DNA from: Dictyostelium discoideum
Taxonomy: Eukaryota
Assembly (NCBI GenBank): GCA_000004695.1
Contig: CM000152.2
Span: 1,568,001 to 1,632,000 of the forward strand
Direction of reading: 5' to 3'
Length of the DNA stretch: 64,000 bases
The notes below the pieces were generated by a model. It saw only the letters and a list, made by a program, of their open reading frames with translations, made no database searches and had not been told where the DNA came from. The translations under genes and the position numbers were made by a program. This document shows, one piece after another, positions 1 to 14,266 of the stretch (positions are counted from its first letter, which is position 1; each line of letters begins with the position of its first letter).

Positions 1-261
1 CTATAGGTTGTATATTCTAATGTTCTTTTACATTTAAAGAAGAGGTGGCCATATGGGTCTTCATTACATAGCATACAATTTATAAGGTGAATATAGTTTA
101 ATGGTAGACATCTTGCATGAAATCTAAACGTCGTATCTTTTGTTTTAATAAACCTTTTTTTTTTTTTTTTTTTTTTTTGATAAATAAACTATTGTAGTAT
201 ACAATTAGTATATTATTTTTATTTATTTATTTTAGGTTTTTTAGTTTTTGTGAATTTAAAA

Positions 262-778
262 TGGAATGTTATTTTAGATTGGGTAATTAATAATTAATTG
301 GTGGTGGAATTGTTGGAATTGGTTCATTTGTGATTATGCTCCATTCTTTTTTAAATTTTTTGATGGTTTAGGACCATTGGGTTTCTTTTTGAGTTTTTGT
401 GAGTTGTTTTTAAGTGAGTTTTGGTTATAGATAATGTTCTTGAATATTCCAATTAGCTTGTGCCATTTTGATTTTAATATATCATAATCTAGTATTGTGT
501 TTTTTATTTGATTGTTCCGATTATCAATTGATTGAGTTATATTGATGTCAAATAATGATTTGCATATCCATATCCATATTTGGTGAATAACTAATGAGAT
601 TATGTTCCAATATGCATGTGTTTTGACTAGATCAAGATTTGTGTTTATATAATTCCAGTAGAATCTGTATTTTTTATTTTGTGCGTTTTCAGCAAAATTA
701 ATAAACCAATGAACCAATTCCAACAATTACACCACCAATTAATTATTAATTACCTAACCTAAAATAACATACCATTTT
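262..778. repeat. About 70-bp inverted repeat pair (262-331 and 700-778) flanking the ORF2 remnant
   Basis: ggtaattaataattaattggtggtggaattgttggaattggttcat (283-328) is the reverse complement of atgaaccaattccaacaattacaccaccaattaattattaattacc (700-745) with one mismatch. The match extends with a few mismatches to ttaaaatggaatgttattttagattgg (262-288) versus the revcomp of 749-778. The right arm overlaps the N-terminal 26 nt of the ORF remnant. Confidence 0.8.
334..726 (-). pseudogene. ORF2 C-terminal remnant of the decayed TRE copy (130-aa open frame, starts on TTG not ATG)
   Basis: Protein similarity to the C-terminus of the 1234-aa ORF2 at 998-4702. The first codon is TTG (724-726), so the M in the track is an artefact. 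There are no upstream RT or endonuclease parts in frame. Confidence 0.5.
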
Positions 779-786
779 AATAAACC

Positions 787-800
787 GAAATTCGTAAAAT
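787..800. repeat. Target-site duplication, left copy (gaaattcgtaaaat)
   Basis: Identical 14-mer at 6047-6060. A second shared 13-mer, taaaagcggtgta, occurs at 816-828 and 6034-6046. Confidence 0.65.
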
Positions 801-828
801 TTTTTTTTTTTACCTAAAAGCGGTGTAT

Positions 829-831
829 TTT

Positions 832-895
<64 letters not shown>
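829..895 (-). repeat. Poly(A) tail of the retrotransposon (T-run on the plus strand)
   Basis: Homopolymer T of about 67 nt lying immediately 3' of the ORF2 3' UTR on the element strand. Confidence 0.8.
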
Positions 896-899
<4 letters not shown>

Positions 900-997
900 T
901 GGATTAACAAGATTGATATATGTCCATCTGTGTTAATACGAGTTTTTATTTAATATTTATTTATAGGCTTATCATTTAAGCTGAAGGGTTATTTTAA

Positions 998-3900
998 TCA
1001 TATGAATTGATCAAAAGATATAATATTTGGGAGAGATGATTCTGGAATACAATAGTAATTAGCTGTTGTTTTTCTTAGCTTGATCGTTGAGGTGAGAAGG
1101 ATCTTAGGGTCTTTGAAATTATTATGGTCTTTTGCTGATAAGTTTTTCAGGTCTTTTGCTTTTTTGATGTATTCTAGAGTGGCCAATTTGTGCCATTTCT
1201 TTAGAAGGGAGCTGTATGATAGTGATTCATTTGTTAAAGGATCTTCACTGTATATTTGATTGCAAATCCAAATCCAAATGTTGTGGAGGATAAGGGCCAT
1301 TAGGTTTCTATATGCGAATGATCTGGTTAGATCATAGTCTATTGCTTTATAGTTCCATTCAAAGTATTCTTTGTGGAATCTGTGGTTGGCGTAGTCTGCA
1401 TTCACTTCTTGATCTTTTTTGGCTGTCGGTGATAATTTTGGAGTTATTCTATTAATGAAATTGTTATTTTGCCTAATTCTTGTATGGTGCCAGTTTTTAC
1501 CTTTGCCTGTGGTAATATAGATGAAATTTTTGAGTTTATTTATTTTTATGAATTGTTTTGTTTTCTTGCATGAGAAGAACAGGTGACCGTATGGGTCTTT
1601 GCTCATATCTTCTTTGCAGAGTGGACATTGTTTGTTGTGAAGGTAGTTTATTGGAAGGCATCTGGCATGGAATCTAAACATTGTGTCTTTTGTTTTAGGG
1701 TCTTTTATCTTCAGTATGTTGTTGAAGAGTTGATTATAGCTGTAGCCTCTTAAGTTTAGAGATGATTGGAATTCCGTTTTAGGGATGGTTAAATTTTGGT
1801 CTTGAATTGTGGTATACCATTCTGCCAGTGAAAGTGGTTGTCCATTTTCGTTTTTTATGGATGTGAGATTATTGTTGAAGATTGCTTTTTTTATTCTTAT
1901 TTTGTTCCATTCGTCTAAGTTTTCTTTTAGGTATCTGGATGTGAATTTGTTTTTTTGGATCTGATATTCCCAGCTTTTGTGATGCGATGAGTTTGTTTGT
2001 TTGGTTTCTAGTGCTAGGATGAACTGGTTTATGATCCAAAGTTTCTGCGCCAGTTGTCTCAATTCTATATTCCAAATGTTCCAACCCCCTACTTTTAGTG
2101 GGTATCTTGCTCTTTTGGTTCTCATTAAATTAATAACTTGAAATCCACTAGCATTTTTGTTGTTTGGTGCCGATAAAAACCATTCGACTAATTTATTGAT
2201 TTGGTTTAATTCCTCTTCCTTAAAGTTCTCTACATATGAATAGTAGGTTAATTTAGAGAGTGCGAATGCTTTGAGGATGTTGGTTTTGGTTTTGATTGTT
2301 GAGTCAGTGGTTTTCCATAGTACTAAGGATGATCTTATTGTGTTTAATATTTCTGGCATTTTTCTTGTTATCCCTTTGCCTGTGAAGAAGTATCCCAAGT
2401 ATCTTTCTGGATTTGTAGATATTGGAATTCTTTGGTTGGTATTGTCTGGGTTGCCTATAAGAATTGATGAAGATTTGTCGATGTTTAGTTTTGAGGAAGT
2501 GGCTTTGCAAAATGAATTGAAGTGTTGTAGTACTAATTCAAGTTGTTGAAAGTCTGGGACCATTGAAGCCGAGTCGTCTGCAAAGCTTTGGAATTTCTCT
2601 CTGTGGTTGCTGTTGTTTAGAGGAAGGCCAGTAATTCGGTCATCTTGTAAAATTTTTCTAGCTAAAGCCTCTATTACAAGGACGAACAGGGTGGGTGATA
2701 GTGGATCTCCTTGTTTAACTCCTCTTTTGATCTCAAAGGGTATAGTAGTTCTACCATTAATTTCAATTCTTGCTTCAGATTTGGTGAGTAGATTCATTAT
2801 CAGGTTGATTATATTGGTTGGAATGTTGATGTGTTGTAGTGATCTGAGTATTGAACCGTGTGAGATCGAGTCAAAAGCTTTTTCGAAATCATATAGTGTA
2901 ATTATTCCGTTAATTCTTTTATCATTACAATAGTTGATTAATTCGTTCATTGATATGATATTATCTAGAATGAATCTGCCTGGTACGAAACCTTTTTGAT
3001 TGTGGTTGATCACTTTCGTTAGTATTGGGATTATTCTATTGTTTATTAGTTTTGAGTGGATTTTATATATACAGTTAGCCAGTGTAATTGGTCTTCTGTT
3101 TTTGATTAGTTCGGGGTCTCCCTTTTTAGGTATCGTGATAATGAGGCCTTCTTTGTAATTTTTGCTAATTAGATGAGGATTTCTTAGAGTGTCGTTGAAT
3201 GCTGAGGCCAGTATTGGAGCTAGTTTTTCTTTGTGTGTTATGTAGAATAAGTTTGGAATTCCATCTGGGCCTGGAGATTTGTGTGGGTTCAATTGTTTTA
3301 TTACTTCTAGGATCTCTTGTGATGTGAATTCATTTTCAAGGTTGTCCCATGTTGAGTCCCTGGTCACTGTCCAATTTTCCAACATTTCATAATGAGATGG
3401 TGGGTCATCTTCTTTGTAGTCATAAAGATTTGAGTAATATTTTACGTATTCTTCTTCGATCAATTCCTGTTTGTTGATTGTTCTACCTTGTGCATCTTTT
3501 ACTGCGTTGATGGTGAAATCATTGTGTCTTTTCTTGATTCTCGCGGAGATGTACTTGAGTGAGGTTTCTTCGCAATAGTTGTTCAATTCTTGTTTAAGTT
3601 GTTCTTCTCTTTTTTTAGATTCATTTATTGCTGAAAGGGTTGCGAAGGCTTGGTCTTTAAATTCTGTCTCTAGTAGGGAGATTAGATTTTTGATGTTTGC
3701 CTTATTGTTGTAGTCATTTTGTTTTTGAAATTCTGTGTATAGTTGTTTTATTTTGTTTAGTAAGCTGTTGAGTTGAGAGAAGGAAATAGAGTTATGGTTG
3801 GATGACAGCTCCCTTGAATAATCGTTAAGTAGGAAGTCTATTTTCTTAAGCATTATGCTTGAGAGGATTGAGGATTTTTTTAATCTCCATCTGCGCTTGT

Positions 3901-4702
3901 TCATCTGTATGTTGGGTAGAGTGAAGGTGGTTGATAGGAAGTTGTGATCTGATAGAGGTATGTCATTAATTTTTGGGGGGATTAGGTTCCTTAAGTATAA
4001 TTGGCTGTAGTTGATTATGCTATTGTTAAGGTATATTCTGTCTAGTCTCCTTTCCAAGATTCTTGTGAGGTTATTGTTTGTGTTGTGTATCGTTCTTGAG
4101 AAGGTGGGTCTTTTATTTAGTTGGTCCATATCCATTAGGTTATTTGAAATTCTGATGGCTTCGATTACTGTGGCCATCTCATCTGGGGATTGTGTTGTCA
4201 AGTTGCCTTGGTCATCATTTGATGTGTGATTGTCATTGAAGTCTAAACAGTTGAAGTCGCCTGCTATGATGTCGATGTTTTTATTAGGGTTAGACGTTAG
4301 GTTGTGGTATTGGTTGTTGAAGTGTTTGTTTAGTGTTGAAGCTAGTGTTTTTCTTTTATCAGGTTGGGCCGGGGCGTATATGGCCAAGATTCTCGTTGTG
4401 GTATCTTTTATTAGAATGTCTGATATTATTAGTCTACCTTCTATTATGAATATTGGTGAGAGTTTTATGTTTTGGTTGTTGTGGTTTAGTATTCCTATTC
4501 CGTTGCCTCTGTTGGTTGCGCTAATGATGGAGCCAGGAAATAGCTGGTGTGCTTGTGTTGCGTCGGCGTTGAGTTCATTGACTATGGTTAGTGCCAATGA
4601 GTTTGGGGGGGATTGGGATTTGATAAAGTCTGTTTTGTTTTTGAAGGAGGTGTCAGTGCCCCAACCTCTGACATTCCATTGGTTGATTTTGATTACTACC
4701 AT
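998..4702 (-). CDS. Retrotransposon ORF2: apurinic/apyrimidinic-type endonuclease plus reverse transcriptase plus Cys-His knuckle (1234 aa)
   Basis: Uninterrupted ORF with a genuine ATG at 4702-4700. The N-terminus has EEP/APE-like motifs (IIAGDFN, SDH), a central RT domain (PGPDGIP..., FADDSA) and C-terminal CPLCKEDMSKDPYGHLFFSC. Confidence 0.85.
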   Translation of the reverse strand: MVVIKINQWNVRGWGTDTSFKNKTDFIKSQSPPNSLALTIVNELNADATQAHQLFPGSIISATNRGNGIGILNHNNQNIKLSPIFIIEGRLIISDILIKDTTTRILAIYAPAQPDKRKTLASTLNKHFNNQYHNLTSNPNKNIDIIAGDFNCLDFNDNHTSNDDQGNLTTQSPDEMATVIEAIRISNNLMDMDQLNKRPTFSRTIHNTNNNLTRILERRLDRIYLNNSIINYSQLYLRNLIPPKINDIPLSDHNFLSTTFTLPNIQMNKRRWRLKKSSILSSIMLKKIDFLLNDYSRELSSNHNSISFSQLNSLLNKIKQLYTEFQKQNDYNNKANIKNLISLLETEFKDQAFATLSAINESKKREEQLKQELNNYCEETSLKYISARIKKRHNDFTINAVKDAQGRTINKQELIEEEYVKYYSNLYDYKEDDPPSHYEMLENWTVTRDSTWDNLENEFTSQEILEVIKQLNPHKSPGPDGIPNLFYITHKEKLAPILASAFNDTLRNPHLISKNYKEGLIITIPKKGDPELIKNRRPITLANCIYKIHSKLINNRIIPILTKVINHNQKGFVPGRFILDNIISMNELINYCNDKRINGIITLYDFEKAFDSISHGSILRSLQHINIPTNIINLIMNLLTKSEARIEINGRTTIPFEIKRGVKQGDPLSPTLFVLVIEALARKILQDDRITGLPLNNSNHREKFQSFADDSASMVPDFQQLELVLQHFNSFCKATSSKLNIDKSSSILIGNPDNTNQRIPISTNPERYLGYFFTGKGITRKMPEILNTIRSSLVLWKTTDSTIKTKTNILKAFALSKLTYYSYVENFKEEELNQINKLVEWFLSAPNNKNASGFQVINLMRTKRARYPLKVGGWNIWNIELRQLAQKLWIINQFILALETKQTNSSHHKSWEYQIQKNKFTSRYLKENLDEWNKIRIKKAIFNNNLTSIKNENGQPLSLAEWYTTIQDQNLTIPKTEFQSSLNLRGYSYNQLFNNILKIKDPKTKDTMFRFHARCLPINYLHNKQCPLCKEDMSKDPYGHLFFSCKKTKQFIKINKLKNFIYITTGKGKNWHHTRIRQNNNFINRITPKLSPTAKKDQEVNADYANHRFHKEYFEWNYKAIDYDLTRSFAYRNLMALILHNIWIWICNQIYSEDPLTNESLSYSSLLKKWHKLATLEYIKKAKDLKNLSAKDHNNFKDPKILLTSTIKLRKTTANYYCIPESSLPNIISFDQFI

Positions 4703-5955
4703 TATGAGATGATATCGATCTCCTCTTGGGAGTCGTATAGCTGCGGTTTGGATGGTGAAGGGTAGATACTCTCTATGAAGCTCTCAATGATTCCTTTCCT
4801 TTCTTTTTTGACAGGTGTCTTAGGGGTGGATGGGATGTAAGGGTTGCTTCTGTTTATTGTTGGTGAGAGTTGGGTGACCTCGTTGTTTGAGTGGATTTCC
4901 TCGTTCTTGCGTTTATGTGATGGAGGGATGTTTGGTGTCTTCTCTCTGTTTTCCGAGGATGAATGGATGTTAGTGCTCGTTTTGTTGGCATTGTCTTTTT
5001 GGATGGCGTTGGATGTTGTGGTAGTGGTTGTGGTGGGTTTGACAGATTGAGATTCTGCTTGGTTTTTGGGGGGAAGAGGTTGAGAGGACTTTTTTGATTG
5101 GGCTTTTTTCTCTTGGGTTGATTGTTTATCAGACTTATTGTTTGCTGGGTTGTTTGTTTGTTGTTGTGGTTTTGGTTGAGAGGATTTGATTGCTATCCTG
5201 TTTTGGATGTTGGGAGGATCATCTGTCATCTCATCTTCTAATGGTTCTTCCGTGTTGTTTGACTCTACTTTCTTATTTTTCTTTTGAGAGGAGTAGGTTT
5301 TGGTGGCCGTTCTGATGGTAAAGTTGGCGATTTCTGTATTGTGTTGGCCAGATTTCATTTGATCGCCTATTTTGCATTCTATTAGACCGAATACTAGGAG
5401 GTGGTCGGTGGAGTATGTAGTATGGTATATTGCATAGGGTATTTCTTCTGCAAAGGCAGTTTTGATGAGGGCGTCCACTATTCCTGCCTTTTCTCTTGGA
5501 ATTCTTACTCTTCCTGTGAGGACGTGGTAGTCTCTACTGGAGGTGATGAAGGTTCCCAATTTGCTTCTATCTCTAATGATATTTAGGAGAGATTGTTCGT
5601 TTTTAATCATCAGGTGTATCATTTTTCTAGTTCCTTTGCCTATGTATATCTTGTCGATTGGGATATCGTAGTTTGAGAGTGTTTTTCTCATTTCTTCTAA
5701 CCCCATGAGATCCATTTTGGGGAATTCGAGTGTAATTGGGTAGAATCCGTTGTTTTTCTCGTAGGTTGAGAGCGCAGTCATGTTCAATATGGTCTCGCAG
5801 TATTTGGAGATGTCTTTGAGGCCTATTGATAATTTGGGGTAGGTCTCCTTTATCTCTGCTGTTTTTGTGGAGAATTCCTTAATGAAGTTCTCTGATGCCT
5901 CGTCCATATGGGTGGAGGGGTTGGCCATTTTAGCCGCGTCTGCGTAGGAATTCAT
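4702..5955 (-). CDS. Retrotransposon ORF1 (417 aa, basic/Thr-rich nucleic-acid-binding-type protein)
   Basis: ATG at 5955-5953. The stop TAA at 4704-4702 overlaps the ORF2 ATG by one base (TAATG), a termination-reinitiation-type junction. Confidence 0.8.
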   Translation of the reverse strand: MNSYADAAKMANPSTHMDEASENFIKEFSTKTAEIKETYPKLSIGLKDISKYCETILNMTALSTYEKNNGFYPITLEFPKMDLMGLEEMRKTLSNYDIPIDKIYIGKGTRKMIHLMIKNEQSLLNIIRDRSKLGTFITSSRDYHVLTGRVRIPREKAGIVDALIKTAFAEEIPYAIYHTTYSTDHLLVFGLIECKIGDQMKSGQHNTEIANFTIRTATKTYSSQKKNKKVESNNTEEPLEDEMTDDPPNIQNRIAIKSSQPKPQQQTNNPANNKSDKQSTQEKKAQSKKSSQPLPPKNQAESQSVKPTTTTTTTSNAIQKDNANKTSTNIHSSSENREKTPNIPPSHKRKNEEIHSNNEVTQLSPTINRSNPYIPSTPKTPVKKERKGIIESFIESIYPSPSKPQLYDSQEEIDIIS

Positions 5956-6046
5956 CTCGATGGGATTCCTTTGAATCGGCGATTTGGTAAGTTAGATCTG
6001 TAGATCGTGGTGGATTGGTGATTTTTTTCGTAAAAGCGGTGTAACG

Positions 6047-6060
6047 AAATTCGTAAAATA
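6047..6060. repeat. Target-site duplication, right copy (gaaattcgtaaaat)
   Basis: Identical to 787-800. Confidence 0.65.
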
Positions 6061-6081
6061 AATATTTTTTATAAAAATGGA

Positions 6082-6153
6082 AGTTCCGAACCAGGATTGA
6101 ACTGGCGACCTAACGATTTGCAGTCGCTTGCTCTTCCACTGAGCTATCGAAAC
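6082..6153 (-). tRNA. tRNA-Cys (anticodon GCA)
   Basis: Minus strand reads GTTTCGATAGCTCAGTGGAAGAGCAAGCGACTGCAAATCGTTAGGTCGCCAGTTCAATCCTGGTTCGGAACT. It has a 7-bp acceptor stem (GTTTCGA/TCGGAAC), D-arm GCTC..GAGC, anticodon stem AGCGA/TCGTT with loop CTGCAAA (GCA), variable loop AGGTC, T-arm GCCAG-TTCAATC-CTGGT and discriminator T. It is followed on the same strand by TTTTT (6077-6073), a Pol III terminator. Confidence 0.8.
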
Positions 6154-8061
6154 TTGTTGAAATTTTTTAATGAGACCTTTTTTTTTGAATTGGAGAATTT
6201 TTTAATGAAACCTCTCACTTTCATTACAATTATCTTAAATTTGTGTCAAATAATATTTCAAATAATAATTTTATTAATTTCAGCAAAGATTAAAAATAAT
6301 ATTTTTTATTTAATTTTATAATTAATAATTATGTCACTCATTTAATTTATTATAAATATAAAAAAATAATTTAATTTTAATTCAGGTTGTTATCTCATTG
6401 TTAAGCGATAAAAGATATTAAATAAAAATATATATAAATAAATATAAATATAAATATAAATATAAATTAATATATAAAGTGTTTTAAAGATTATTTAATA
6501 TAAAATAAAGATTAAATTTTAAATAAAAATTATAATATTTGTAACATAATTACAAAAGACCACTTTCGTTACAATTTGTGGTTTAACAGCCCAACCTAGC
6601 CAATTTTAAGTCAATGGTTCGTTTCTGGGTTAAAATCTAATATGCCAAAATAAAATTAATTTGTCAAATTAAGATATTTAAAGTTTAAAATTTAGCCAAA
6701 AATTTTCATTTTTTTACAAAAAAGAATTATAATATAATAAAAAAAAGCCAAAAAGATATGTTTTACAATAAATAAATTAAGTATTTACAATTTTATTTAA
6801 ATTTTAAAATTATTAGGAATTTTAATTTGTATTTGTTTTTAAATTAATTAATATTTATATATTAATATTAATTATATATATACATATTGATTACTATTCC
6901 AATTAAATATATGCAGGGCCAACATAAAATCCTTTTTTAATTACAGTTTTTCTTGGATCCCATCTCGTTATCATTGATTTTTCATATACTAATGAACTAT
7001 TAAAATTGTTTAAATTTTGGAATGTTTTATTATTTTTAATTGTAACGATTGCAGAAAAAGAATCTAAAATATTTAAAATTAATCTTTGTTAGATTTTTAT
7101 TTAAATTTTAAAAGTTTATTTTTTTTTTTTTTTTTTTTTTTTTTCTAATCAACTTACCGATAATTGTCATTTAATAATTTATTTATAAAAATATTTAGAT
7201 AAATATTTGAAAAATGATATTTAAAAAAATGAAAAAAGATAAAATAATAATAAACAAAAAAAAAGATCAAAATTATTTATAGTTTTATTTTTTTTAATTA
7301 TTTATTTATACTTTATTTTTTTTTTATTTATTTATATTTATTTTTATTTTTATTTTTATTTTTATTTTTATTTTTATTTTTTTTGTTTTGATATAAAAGT
7401 GGTGAAAAGATTAGATATAAAATGTTCAACTAATTAGATATAAATTAAAAAAATACTTTAAACATTAGACATGCTATTCTTCATAGTTGTGCCAAAAAAA
7501 AATAAAAAATAATATTGTTTTAATAATAAAATTAAAAAAATAATAATTAAAAAAAAAAAAAAAAAAAGATTGTGGGACAAGATTAACAGATGAGAAGTGT
7601 GAGTGGTTATTTTGTTTTTGTTTTTATTTGTATATTTTTATTTCTAATTAATCTTTTTTTTTTTATTTTTTTTTTAAAATTATTTATTAATTTATTTATT
7701 TATTTATTTATTTTTTTTTTGAAAAAAAAAAGAATAATTAATTTTAAAAAAAAAAATTATTTATTCATTTTATAATTCCTTATATTAATAAACAAATATA
7801 AAAGATAAAAATTGTTTATACCCCTAAGTGTAATATAAACCCCTAATAAGAAAAACTCTTAATCAAATTAATGTGTGGTAAATTTTTAAACCTCAAGATA
7901 TGTACAATTTGTCAATTATCTGTCAAATTGTAATTATCTCAACAACTATCTTAATGTCAACTATTAATAAATTTTCCAATAATGATGATTATTAATTGTT
8001 CACATGGTGATAATAATAATTATAATTATTATAATAATCAAAAAAATAAAAAATAAAAAAA

Positions 8062-11625: not shown

Positions 11626-13456
11626 CTAGATATGAGATTTTTGAGAGACCAATTCTGAAAAAGCAGAGTCTATACATTTTTTTAAATCTTTATAACTGAC
11701 TACCAAAAGTGATTGTTCATCTCTAGACATTAAAAGTATTTTTTCATCGACACCACAATCCAATTTATTGAGGGTTTCAACAACATGGTAAAAGTCGAGC
11801 ACAGGAGTACCATCATCGTAGACTTGATGAAAGATGTAGTCACGAAACAATTTGATTAGATACCTATCACCAGTTTCAGACCAACGTGGATCCATATCAT
11901 AGAGTGGACGTTCATTGATGAAACCCAACTTTGTAACCAATCTAAAGAGACGACCATTCTCATATTCTTTAGAGAGTTCAGTCTCGAGGTCATCAGTGTA
12001 GGTATGAAGATAATTATTCTCTTGCAAAAGTCTTCCACTAATCATCAACACCACTTCATCGATATTTGGTAGGTTTATAACTGGTTTGGTTAATAGATAT
12101 ACAATTAGATTATACAATTCTTTACTATACTGATTTGATACATATTCGATTGATTTCGAAAGATTGGTAGTAGTAGTTGATTGAGCGGATCTACATGCCA
12201 ATGTCAATATTAATCTACCAAATAACAATAGATCTTCATGTTGATACTGTGCTAAAATACGTGGAGTATCGAAATTCACCACATCAAATATACCAACACC
12301 ATTCATTCGAATCCTATTCTTTCCAGTTAATAATATCTTACTTGGATGAATTACACGACAAACTAATCCTGCTGAATGAATTGTCTTTAATGCTGATGTA
12401 ATTTGACATATAAAACTCCATAATACACTTTCACTTAATGGATTACCACTTTGACTTAGATATTTACTTTCCAATGTTTCTGATCCTGGGAAAAATTCAT
12501 ATGTAAAAAATAATGCTAAAAAAATAAAATAAAAAAATACAATTAATAAATAAAATAAAAATTTTATATTATTATTATTATTATTGTTATTATTGTTTTT
12601 TTTTTACTTACAACTATTATCACCAAATTCTTTACTAACAAAAATTTCTTTTAATGATACAATATTTGGATGTTGAATATTTCTCCAAGTTTCAGCAGCT
12701 TGTAATGCATACTCACTTGATAGTCTAAAACCTTCAACTCTTCTAATTGCATAAGGTAAACCATCCAATGTACTAATAGCTTTATATACTGAAGTTATAT
12801 ATCCAAACATTTTACCTTGGTTTTCTCTTGATGCATCATGATCTAATGGATATAGTGAATGATATTTATTTAACATTGGTGGTATATTTTTAATTCTTGG
12901 ATCTAATTTTTTTTTATTTTTTTATTATTAATAATAAAAAAAAAAAAAAACAAAAGGGTGATCAATAATTAATAAAATTAAAATATATGGAAATATTTTT
13001 TTAAATTTTCTTTTTTTTTTTTTAATTTTTTTTTTTATAATTTACATACCATTTGGGTCAAGAGTTAAATATAATAATGATTTTTGATTTAAAATATCTT
13101 GTTTTAAAGATTCAGACATAAAGAAAGAACCTATATTTCTTCTACCTGGTTTATTTCGAATTACTGATTGTGAATAGGATGGGTATGGTGTATATGATTG
13201 ATTGATTTGTGCTTGTTGTTGTGCAGCTTGAATTTGTTGTAAATGTTGTTGAAGTTGTAATTGTAAAAGTTTATTATTATTATTTTGTAATGATGGATTT
13301 TGTGCTAAAGGTTGTGATGATGGTTGTTGTTGCTGTTGTTGTTGTNNNNNNNNNNNNNNNNNNNNNNNNNNNNNNNNNNNNNNNNNNNNNNNNNNNNNNN
13401 NNNNNNNNNNNNNNNNNNNNNNNNNNNNNNNNNNNNNNNNNNNNNGATAAACCGCC

Positions 13457-13487
<31 letters not shown>

Positions 13488-14266
13488 GCTGTGATGATGA
13501 TTGTGGTGAAGGATTTGGTTGCTGGAATTGTTGTTGATATGATTGTGGTGATGCATTTCTCATTTGTGCTGCTACAAAATTATTAATCTGGAATTGATTA
13601 TTCATATTTGGATCAATACCATTATTTGGTTGTGGTTGTGGTTCCTATATTTTTTCACATATTTATGTGAGTCAGAATTTATACATATAAAAATAAGTAA
13701 ATAAGTAAATAAATATAAATAAATAAAGGTAATAATTATTATAGATTATTTCAACATACATATTGATGTTGTTCATAATCATCCACTGAGTTATCACCAT
13801 AAGGGTATAAATGCTGATCATCGTCATAATTTTGTTGCTGTTGTTGTTGTAAAAGTAATGCTTGCTGCTGTTGTTGTTGTAATAGCTGCTGTTGTTGTAA
13901 TTGTTGTAATTGCTGTTTTGGTATATATTCTGGTATTCCTGATTGAAAATGATCTGCCCAATGATGATTTGTTTGTTGATTTGTACTTAAATTTTGAAAT
14001 GATGTTGTTAAATTATCTCTATTAAAGTGTGTGTGTATGTATGTATGTATGTATGTATGTATGTATGTATGTATGTGTGTGTGTGTGAAATGATATTATT
14101 AGTAAATAAACAAAGGTATATATCTGAATAAATATCTAAAGTATATAAGATATTAAAATGATCTATACATTGGAGATTTCTTTAATGGTGATGCTATATT
14201 ACTGTTTGGACTAATTATTGGGTTATTTGATGTTGCTGTATTATTACTTCCATTGCCGTTTGAATT

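Follow-up and report, generated by a model that had tools for sequence, protein, structure and literature searches.

A 5'-truncated TRE3-A retrotransposon, probably nested in the stub of another TRE3-type element, behind a tRNA-Cys gene of Dictyostelium discoideum

The locus and its features

We analyzed a 64 kb stretch of the Dictyostelium discoideum genome (contig CM000152.2 of assembly GCA_000004695.1, positions 1,568,001 to 1,632,000), hereafter the window, in which a retrotransposon of the TRE3 type lies behind a tRNA-Cys gene. All coordinates are positions in the window, and the element is on the minus strand. We concluded that a copy of the TRE3-A family, truncated at its 5' end and occupying 828–6030, very probably arrived by target-primed reverse transcription (TPRT) and is nested in an older stub, the short 3' terminus of a different TRE3-type element, behind the tRNA gene.

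ARAGORN detected a single tRNA in the whole window, tRNA-Cys(GCA) at 6078–6154 on the minus strand, and Rfam agreed. The limits of the TRE3-A body were set by alignment to 13 full-length relatives: two copies from D. discoideum (L001–L002), four from D. citrinum (L003–L006) and seven more from D. discoideum (L009–L015). The gene and the parts of the element, with their open reading frames (ORFs), untranslated regions (UTRs) and reverse transcriptase (RT), are as follows.

6082–6153, minus strand: tRNA-Cys(GCA) gene, the integration landmark (Rfam tRNA, 61.4 bits)
6094–6102, minus strand: internal B box of the tRNA-Cys gene, GTTCAATCC (sequence reading)
6073–6077, minus strand: T5 terminator of RNA polymerase III, 3' of tRNA-Cys
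828–6030, minus strand: TRE3-A element including its tail
895–6030, minus strand: TRE3-A body, 5136 nt (alignment to the 13 relatives)
5956–6030, minus strand: remaining 5' UTR, 75 nt
4702–5955, minus strand: ORF1, 417 amino acids (aa; open reading frame)
998–4702, minus strand: ORF2, 1234 aa (open reading frame)
4700–4704, minus strand: TAATG, overlap of the ORF1 stop and the ORF2 ATG
3938–4702, minus strand: predicted apurinic/apyrimidinic (APE)-type endonuclease of ORF2, about aa 1–255 (family profile)
2390–3133, minus strand: predicted RT of ORF2, aa 524–771, with FADD at aa 707–710 (Pfam RVT_1, E=4.8e-33)
1568–1627, minus strand: predicted zinc finger of ORF2, C1026/C1029/H1040/C1045 (family profile)
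895–997, minus strand: 3' UTR
828–894, minus strand: poly(A) tail, 67 nt, A61 T A5 (plus-strand T-run 834–894 together with 828–833)

The body begins with CGAAAAAAATCACC, at what corresponds to nt 91 of a full-length element; its last bases are ...GTTAATCCAATATT. An earlier account of this DNA, made without database searches (the sequence-only reading), had given a tail of about 67 nt, two fully open ORFs of 417 and 1234 aa, a shared TAATG and a same-strand tRNA-Cys upstream, and in these respects it agreed with our measurements. The span it assigned to the element, 801–6153, was too wide, since it took in the tRNA gene as well as bases 800–827 and 6031–6044, which are not TRE3-A sequence but another element's stub, the tail of that stub and one extra base.

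Nested direct repeats and the stub

Two sets of direct repeats surround the element. An exact 15-bp repeat, CGAAATTCGTAAAAT on the plus strand, was found at 786–800 and 6045–6059; it counts as 14 bp if an ambiguous A/T is assigned to the tail. Within it, the 13-mer TACACCGCTTTTA directly abuts the TRE3-A sequence on both sides, and it has just two exact copies in the window. The repeats, described here as predicted target-site duplications (TSDs), and the pieces between them are listed below.

6045–6059, minus strand: 5' copy of the predicted stub TSD, 15 bp, ATTTTACGAATTTCG on the minus strand (exact 15-mer; flanks T + stub + A12)
6044, minus strand: one extra base, T, at the 5' junction of the stub
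6031–6043, minus strand: 5' copy of the predicted TRE3-A TSD, 13 bp TACACCGCTTTTA, itself stub-derived sequence (exact 13-mer)
815–827, minus strand: 3' copy of the predicted TRE3-A TSD, 13 bp TACACCGCTTTTA (exact 13-mer)
800–814, minus strand: remainder of the stub, GGT at 812–814 and an A12 tail at 800–811
786–800, minus strand: 3' copy of the predicted stub TSD, 15 bp (base 800 is ambiguous between TSD and tail; base 786 is common to the next TSD)

Read along the minus strand, the order is thus the 15-bp repeat, T, TACACCGCTTTTA, the truncated TRE3-A with A61TA5, TACACCGCTTTTA, GGT, A12 and the 15-bp repeat again. The 3' copy of the 13-mer, together with GGT and A12, reads TACACCGCTTTTAGGT-A12, that is, a 16-nt stub followed by a tail.

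On the sequence-only reading this layout would be one intact full-length TRE3 at 801–6044, with a composite poly(A) tail and a single flanking TSD of 14/15 bp. The 15-bp repeat is indeed exact and abuts the A12 run as a TPRT product would, and both ORFs are open. However, no TRE3-A sequence is present in the initial 14 nt that follow the 5' repeat, the 90-nt leader of the 13 relatives is absent, the 16 nt that separate the two A-runs are another element's 3' end, and an exact 13-bp repeat directly flanks the TRE3-A part with its 67-nt tail. We judged this to be the least probable of the histories considered here. The claim that this element has intact 14-bp TSDs therefore failed: the exact repeat exists, but it belongs to the older stub, and the duplication of the TRE3-A copy itself is the 13-bp TACACCGCTTTTA.

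The origin of the 16 nt was revealed by locus L014 (D. discoideum, GCA_054883475.1). At 4270–4299 of that locus, ...ATATAACAA-TACACCGCTTTTAGGT-A13 forms the 3' terminus of a different retroelement, a copy of at least 800 nt whose ORF2 C-terminus contains a TRE-type zinc finger and is 25% identical to that of TRE3-A ORF2. At 785–822 of the same locus we found a free-standing stub, ACACCGCTTTTAGGT followed by A23, with its own 14-bp TSD, 38 nt downstream of a tRNA-Tyr gene. Since another element ends in the 16-mer with poly(A), and since this terminus also occurs independently as a stub, we concluded that the window most likely holds a 16-nt stub of that family. The 15-bp repeat flanks the unit formed by T, stub and A12, and for this reason we assigned it to the stub, as the apparent TSD of an older insertion from another TRE3-type family. 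The TRE3-A copy would later have entered that stub, with the 13-bp TACACCGCTTTTA as its own TSD; in other TRE3-A copies TSDs range from about 9 to 15 bp by eye, and 13 bp fits within this range.

Two interpretations were tried and dropped on the L014 evidence. One held that a read-through transcript had carried a progenitor's TSD along, and it was given up once the 16-mer with poly(A) proved to be another element's 3' end and to occur as an independent stub. The other, an internally deleted 5' end, had been prompted by the likeness of CACCGC to the true 5' terminus CCGCACCGC.

The same nested layout could also result from transduction in a single event. In this scenario a truncated TRE3-A within a copy of the other TRE3 family would have been transcribed from upstream, the transcript would have ended at the other family's 3' end, and the unit, with the TSDs of its source and with both 5' and 3' transduced sequence, would have been inserted with a 15-bp TSD. 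The outer 3' end is a genuine retroelement terminus with an A-tail and could have primed TPRT. Such an event nevertheless requires transcription of a promoter-less source, and exactly 1 nt would have to separate the new 5' end from the source TSD downstream of it. Further, an uninterrupted stub of the same length stands independently behind another tRNA gene (L014 785–822), and repeated hits on one tRNA gene are routine: at least four in the window, with tandems in L001, L007, L014 and L015. We consider transduction improbable.

Template switching is known for L1-type reverse transcriptases, for example from U6/L1 chimeras, and it offers another single-event account, in which TPRT would have begun at the 3' end of the other family's RNA, of which 16 nt were copied, with a first switch to the poly(A) of a TRE3-A RNA and another at the 5' junction. 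The 3' order of A12, 16 nt and a long poly(A) fits the first switch. The exact 13-nt copy at the 5' junction, in contrast, needs a second and very specific switch, whereas 13 bp lies within the ordinary range of TRE3-A TSDs. This account we regard as very improbable, more so than transduction. The single-event alternatives demand extra coincidences and leave the independent stub unaccounted for; insertion of the stub first, followed by TRE3-A, is a sequence of events whose initial step is directly documented, because such a stub stands alone in L014.

The stubs themselves deserve brief mention. Three copies of the ACACCGCTTTTAGGT-type 3' end were seen in 254 kb, and two of the three are stubs whose 5' ends lie within 1 nt of each other. 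Both (L014 785–822 and window 800–827) consist of 15–16 nt plus poly(A) with their own TSD, 20–40 nt behind tRNA genes. A flanking 14-mer in L014, ATATTTAGTTTTGT, is present three times, hinting at another abortive event. It is conceivable, though we think it rather unlikely, that 15–16-nt stubs of this kind, ACACCGCTTTTAGGT with poly(A) and TSDs, recur 20–40 bp behind tRNA genes. If this were true genome-wide, the reverse transcriptase of that family would break off, or change its template, at a set position soon after initiation; the stub would mark the minimal 3' RNA segment that the enzyme engages, and integrations that failed at tRNA genes would have left a hidden record in such stubs. 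This recurrence is the only thread of the analysis that is even mildly new.

Absence of the 5' leader

All 13 full-length relatives start (A)n-CCG[T/C]ACCGC[G/T]ATCAAGAGG..., and in each of them (L001–L006, L009–L015) the leader runs (A)nCCG[T/C]ACCGC...CAATCTTTC. This leader of 90 nt precedes C[G/A]AAAAAA[A/C]ATCACC. In the window copy, homology starts exactly at CGAAAAAAATCACC, position 6030, and the first 90 nt are missing. The copy is thus a truncated member of TRE3-A, and the truncation is compatible with membership.

Within the leader, a 34-nt block, CCTTAATCTCGGTCAATTT...AATCTTTCAA, is identical at 31 of 34 positions in the TRE3-B-like element of L008, whereas coding DNA there is only about 67% identical. 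This difference indicates that the leader is under constraint, and it suggests a promoter or RNA function for the 90 nt. Without the leader, the copy is most likely unable to drive transcription of its own; its ORF proteins could still be produced if it were transcribed from outside.

The description of the element as structurally intact therefore had to be abandoned, given that a 5' leader conserved in 13 relatives is absent. The suggestion that it is possibly still competent for retrotransposition was weakened, both by the loss of the leader and by a 0.9% difference from a lineage of five near-identical full-length copies (see below). A count of full-length autonomous master copies should leave this copy out, because the conserved leader is missing.

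Coding capacity

ORF1 gave no domain in a Pfam search, in keeping with the description of TRE ORF1 proteins as being without known domains (PMC5006619). The RT of ORF2 was clear from the RVT_1 match. For the endonuclease, Pfam Exo_endo_phos matched over its full length but below threshold (E=0.0056), and a single-sequence search of the PDB with the isolated ORF2 N-terminus returned no endonuclease match; this assignment therefore leans on a family profile. We built the profile, A1, from 12 sequences with the window ORF2 as first row. As a single sequence in phmmer, ORF2 matched human L1 ORF2p with E=3.3e-50, while profile A1 aligned with the whole length of L1 ORF2p (E=2.8e-248) and matched the crystal structure of the L1 endonuclease, 1vyb (E=4e-50).

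In the alignment of 12 sequences, endonuclease residues N10, Y109, D149, N151, D221, D252 and H253 were invariant or nearly so, as were A708-D709-D710 of the RT and C1026, C1029, H1040 and C1045 of the zinc finger. Residue E43 of the endonuclease was read by eye within the motif VNELN. All catalytic motifs of ORF2 thus appear to be retained, and the sequence-only reading, which had seen an endonuclease, an RT and a zinc knuckle, was borne out, with the first and last of these backed by the family profile. To judge from its sequence, the copy should still be able to encode ORF1p and a complete ORF2p with endonuclease, RT and zinc finger.

Identity and relatives

Residues 59–417 of ORF1 are identical to DDB_G0279077 of D. 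discoideum AX4, and it follows from this exact match that the window is AX4 sequence and that the copy is already annotated. Exact look-ups of the whole ORF1, of ORF2 and of a 1059-aa sub-model of ORF2 returned no entry. ORF2 shares 99% identity with a cluster of 79 proteins drawn from D. discoideum and D. citrinum; with a second type from D. discoideum the figure is 58%. One and the same ORF2 protein is encoded by all four D. citrinum copies (L003–L006). For the 11 of 13 relatives whose fetched locus takes in the 3' end, the length without the tail is 5219–5224 nt.

In the literature the TRE3-A consensus measures 5229 nt, against 5279 nt for TRE3-B and 4734 nt for TRE3-C, and TRE3-A is the commonest family, with 67 copies, 13 of them full-length (PMC5006619, Table 1). 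The cluster that contains the window element is likewise the largest. The TRE3-B-like element of L008 is clearly separate, with 58–64% identity to the window element, and two further families with other 3' ends are also distinct from it. Homology of its RT and endonuclease, with catalytic residues retained, places the window element among APE-type non-long-terminal-repeat retrotransposons of the L1 clade, and its two ORFs, the order of the ORF2 domains, the tail and TSD and the position behind a tRNA gene mark it as TRE3. Position and orientation, downstream of the tRNA gene and on the same strand, exclude a TRE5 identity and agree with the TRE3 assignment of the sequence-only reading. TRE3-A was formerly named Tdd-3, and both the element and its targeting of sites downstream of tRNA genes have been described for decades. 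The element is thus a known one, in an ordinary copy.

Age and recent activity

The window copy is 98.7–99.1% identical to D. discoideum copies and 94.6% identical to D. citrinum copies. Compared with nine D. discoideum copies, it carries private substitutions at 12 of 5137 positions. Eight of these are synonymous, and the other four produce three amino-acid differences, at T180 of ORF1 and at L971 and K1005 of ORF2. That the private changes are mostly synonymous suggests that most of the differences arose in an active lineage before insertion, and not by later decay. The perfect TSD and the pure A-run of 61 nt also point to youth.

Five D. discoideum copies from GCA_054883475.1 (L011–L015) are full-length at 5224 nt, differ from one another at 0–1 positions, lie at different tRNA genes and have both ORFs open. 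The window copy differs from this lineage at 46 of 5137 positions (0.9%), and it therefore stands outside the most recent burst. That is, the earlier view of a recent copy held insofar as the copy is young, but it does not come from the latest burst. The near identity of L011–L015, together with four D. citrinum copies that share one ORF2 protein, indicates very recent TRE3-A activity in both species.

In one copy of the L011–L015 lineage (L012 5806–5860), a tandem duplication doubles the first 23 nt (AAACCGCACCGCGATCAAGAGGAT twice). A duplication of this kind at the 5' end is expected from template jumping at the 5' end of the RNA.

Position behind the tRNA gene and repeated insertion

Homology to TRE3-A starts at 6030, which is 47 nt from the tRNA end given by ARAGORN and 51 nt from that given by Rfam. 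Measured from the tRNA end, the TRE3-A target site starts at 34–38 nt; measured from where the internal B box starts, the distance is 59 nt. The sequence-only reading had set the 5' end about 36 bp past the tRNA-Cys; this holds for the distance from the Rfam tRNA end to 6044 (about 37 nt), but TRE3-A starts only at 6030. TRE3 elements lie 40–150 bp downstream of tRNA genes and share their orientation (PMC5911963), and for TRE3-A the published distance behind tRNA genes is 14–228 bp (PMC5006619). The placement is therefore TRE3-like, at the short end of the published range. Targeting guided by TFIIIC and the B box, a model drawn from the literature, may explain it.

Farther from the tRNA gene, two older fragments continue the series.

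143–786, minus strand: 5'-truncated copy of a third TRE3-type family, older, with its body at 155–774 (tblastn, 34% to ORF2 aa 1103–1176)
155–178, minus strand: tail of this copy, a T-run
775–786 and 143–154, minus strand: 12-bp TSD of this copy, TTTTAATAAACC
1–142, minus strand: the oldest fragment seen, a TRE3-B-like ORF2 zinc-finger region that runs off the window start (tblastn, 65% to ORF2 aa 1003–1051)

The third-family fragment is 93% identical in nucleotides to L014 4795–5343, and the fragment at 1–142 is 83% identical to the TRE3-B-like element in L008. Because the latter runs off the left edge, the pile-up behind tRNA-Cys is longer than the window shows. Altogether there were at least four successive insertions in the same orientation behind one tRNA-Cys gene, and the original flank of that gene has been supplanted by older insertions. 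Reconstructed target sites fall roughly 18–50 nt past the tRNA end, all in the orientation of the tRNA. Tandem insertions are also present in L001, L007, L014 and L015, and TREs have been reported to hit the same tRNA gene sequentially, producing tandems (PMC5006619, supplement).

The 5' end of the third-family fragment includes a 76-nt inverted copy of a segment of its own 3' UTR, 93% complementary (arms 256–331 and 705–780). That 3' UTR segment is also present in direct orientation, and a 6-nt microhomology, TTAAAA, overlaps the 12-bp TSD. This layout is unlike classical twin-priming and looks more like a snap-back or second-template event.

The junction of ORF1 and ORF2

All four D. citrinum copies and the five D. 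discoideum copies L011–L015 retain the TAATG overlap, which also stands at the ORF2 start of the TRE3-B-like L008; in one degenerate copy it is mutated to TAATA. Relative to ORF1, ORF2 is read in the −1 frame. The literature account of the junction is a −1 frameshift (PMC5911963), and such a shift is possible, because upstream of its AUG the ORF2 frame stays open over 81 nt. Termination and reinitiation at UAAUG is a plausible alternative. In SART1 of Bombyx mori, coupling at UAAUG involves RNA structure downstream (PMC3894237, citing Kojima et al. 2005). Folding 121 nt of RNA at 4590–4710, which includes UAAUG and sequence downstream, gave z=+0.84, no better than shuffled sequence.

Proposed history of the locus

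The following course of events would account for the locus. A mini-insertion of 29–30 bp would have come first, with its own 15-bp TSD; it would have consisted of a 16-nt stub from the 3' terminus of another TRE3-type family, followed by A12. The TRE3-A endonuclease would then have nicked inside this mini-insertion, about 35–50 bp downstream of tRNA-Cys and in the orientation of the tRNA. Starting at the poly(A) tail of a TRE3-A RNA, reverse transcription would have halted with the 5'-most 90 nt still uncopied. Repair would have duplicated 13 bp of the stub, TACACCGCTTTTA, leaving two nested sets of direct repeats. The two older 5'-truncated TRE3-type fragments now lie farther from the tRNA, and each new arrival would have shifted older ones outward. 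Either the UAAUG overlap or a −1 shift presumably couples translation of ORF2 to that of ORF1.

Several points weigh against this history. The label TRE3-A is indirect, being based on length, abundance and behavior and not on alignment to TRE3-A/B/C/D reference sequences. We infer the order of events from the nesting, and an allele with the stub alone was nowhere seen. The probable loss of competence is read from the conservation of the leader that is missing. Lastly, 10 comparator copies lie 69–145 nt from their respective tRNA genes, and the window copy (47–51 nt) is nearer than all 10, although still within the published range.

The locus has little significance beyond its correct annotation, and AX4 already has a named gene model for the ORF1 of this copy. 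The element boundaries and the TSD do differ from the first-look impression. The locus also illustrates how repeated targeting of one tRNA gene gives rise to nested arrays, and how a TSD may consist of the remnant of another element.

Other observations

In L006 (D. citrinum), an insert of about 210 nt (1827–2036) lies within the first bases of a TRE3-A copy. It contains a B-box-like GGTTCGAGTCTTGG, its final 60 nt or so resemble the 3' end of TRE3-A (AAAACTCGCATTAAC...GTTAATCTAATATT), it ends in A24, and it is flanked by CCGTACC repeats. The insert had no Rfam match and no second copy among the fetched loci. In its sequence it looks like a non-autonomous element, similar to short interspersed elements, that borrows the TRE3-A tail.

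Elsewhere in the window, the minus strand carries a PAN3-like gene at 11626–13605, which shares 89% identity with D. purpureum PAN3 in its C-terminal exon and is cut within a glutamine-rich stretch by an assembly gap of 100 N (13346–13445). A protein search returned no D. discoideum ortholog (best matches: 91% to a metagenome protein, 89% to D. purpureum), and for this reason the gene may be absent or broken in current annotations. The next gene after it is more than 10 kb away.

Comparison with known systems

The window element resembles TRE3-A in having two ORFs with ORF2 in the −1 frame, an ORF2 composed of endonuclease, RT and zinc finger, a poly(A) tail, TSDs and a same-strand position downstream of a tRNA gene, and its full-length relatives (5219–5224 nt) approach the published consensus of 5229 nt. 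It differs from full-length TRE3-A in being without the first 90 nt and nested in the stub of another TRE3 family.

Compared with human LINE-1, its ORF2p is collinear throughout and shares the catalytic residues of the endonuclease, the FADD of the RT and the C-terminal Cys/His motif, and both elements bear the hallmarks of TPRT: poly(A), variable 5' truncation and TSDs. In contrast, the window ORF1p has no detectable similarity to L1 ORF1p, its ORFs overlap as UAAUG whereas L1 has a spacer between them, and it lies at a tRNA gene whereas L1 inserts at loose TTTT/A sites.

The overlap of the ORF1 stop and the ORF2 start as UAAUG is shared with SART1 (PMC3894237, citing Kojima et al. 2005). SART1 needs a downstream RNA structure, whereas the fold in the window gave no signal (z=+0.84).

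TRE5-A (DRE) belongs with the window element to the TRE super-family, has the same order of ORF2 domains and also targets tRNA genes. TRE5 elements, whose UTRs are modular (A/B/C), insert opposite to the tRNA gene in orientation and about 50 bp upstream of it; the window element has short UTRs and lies downstream of its tRNA gene, on the same strand.

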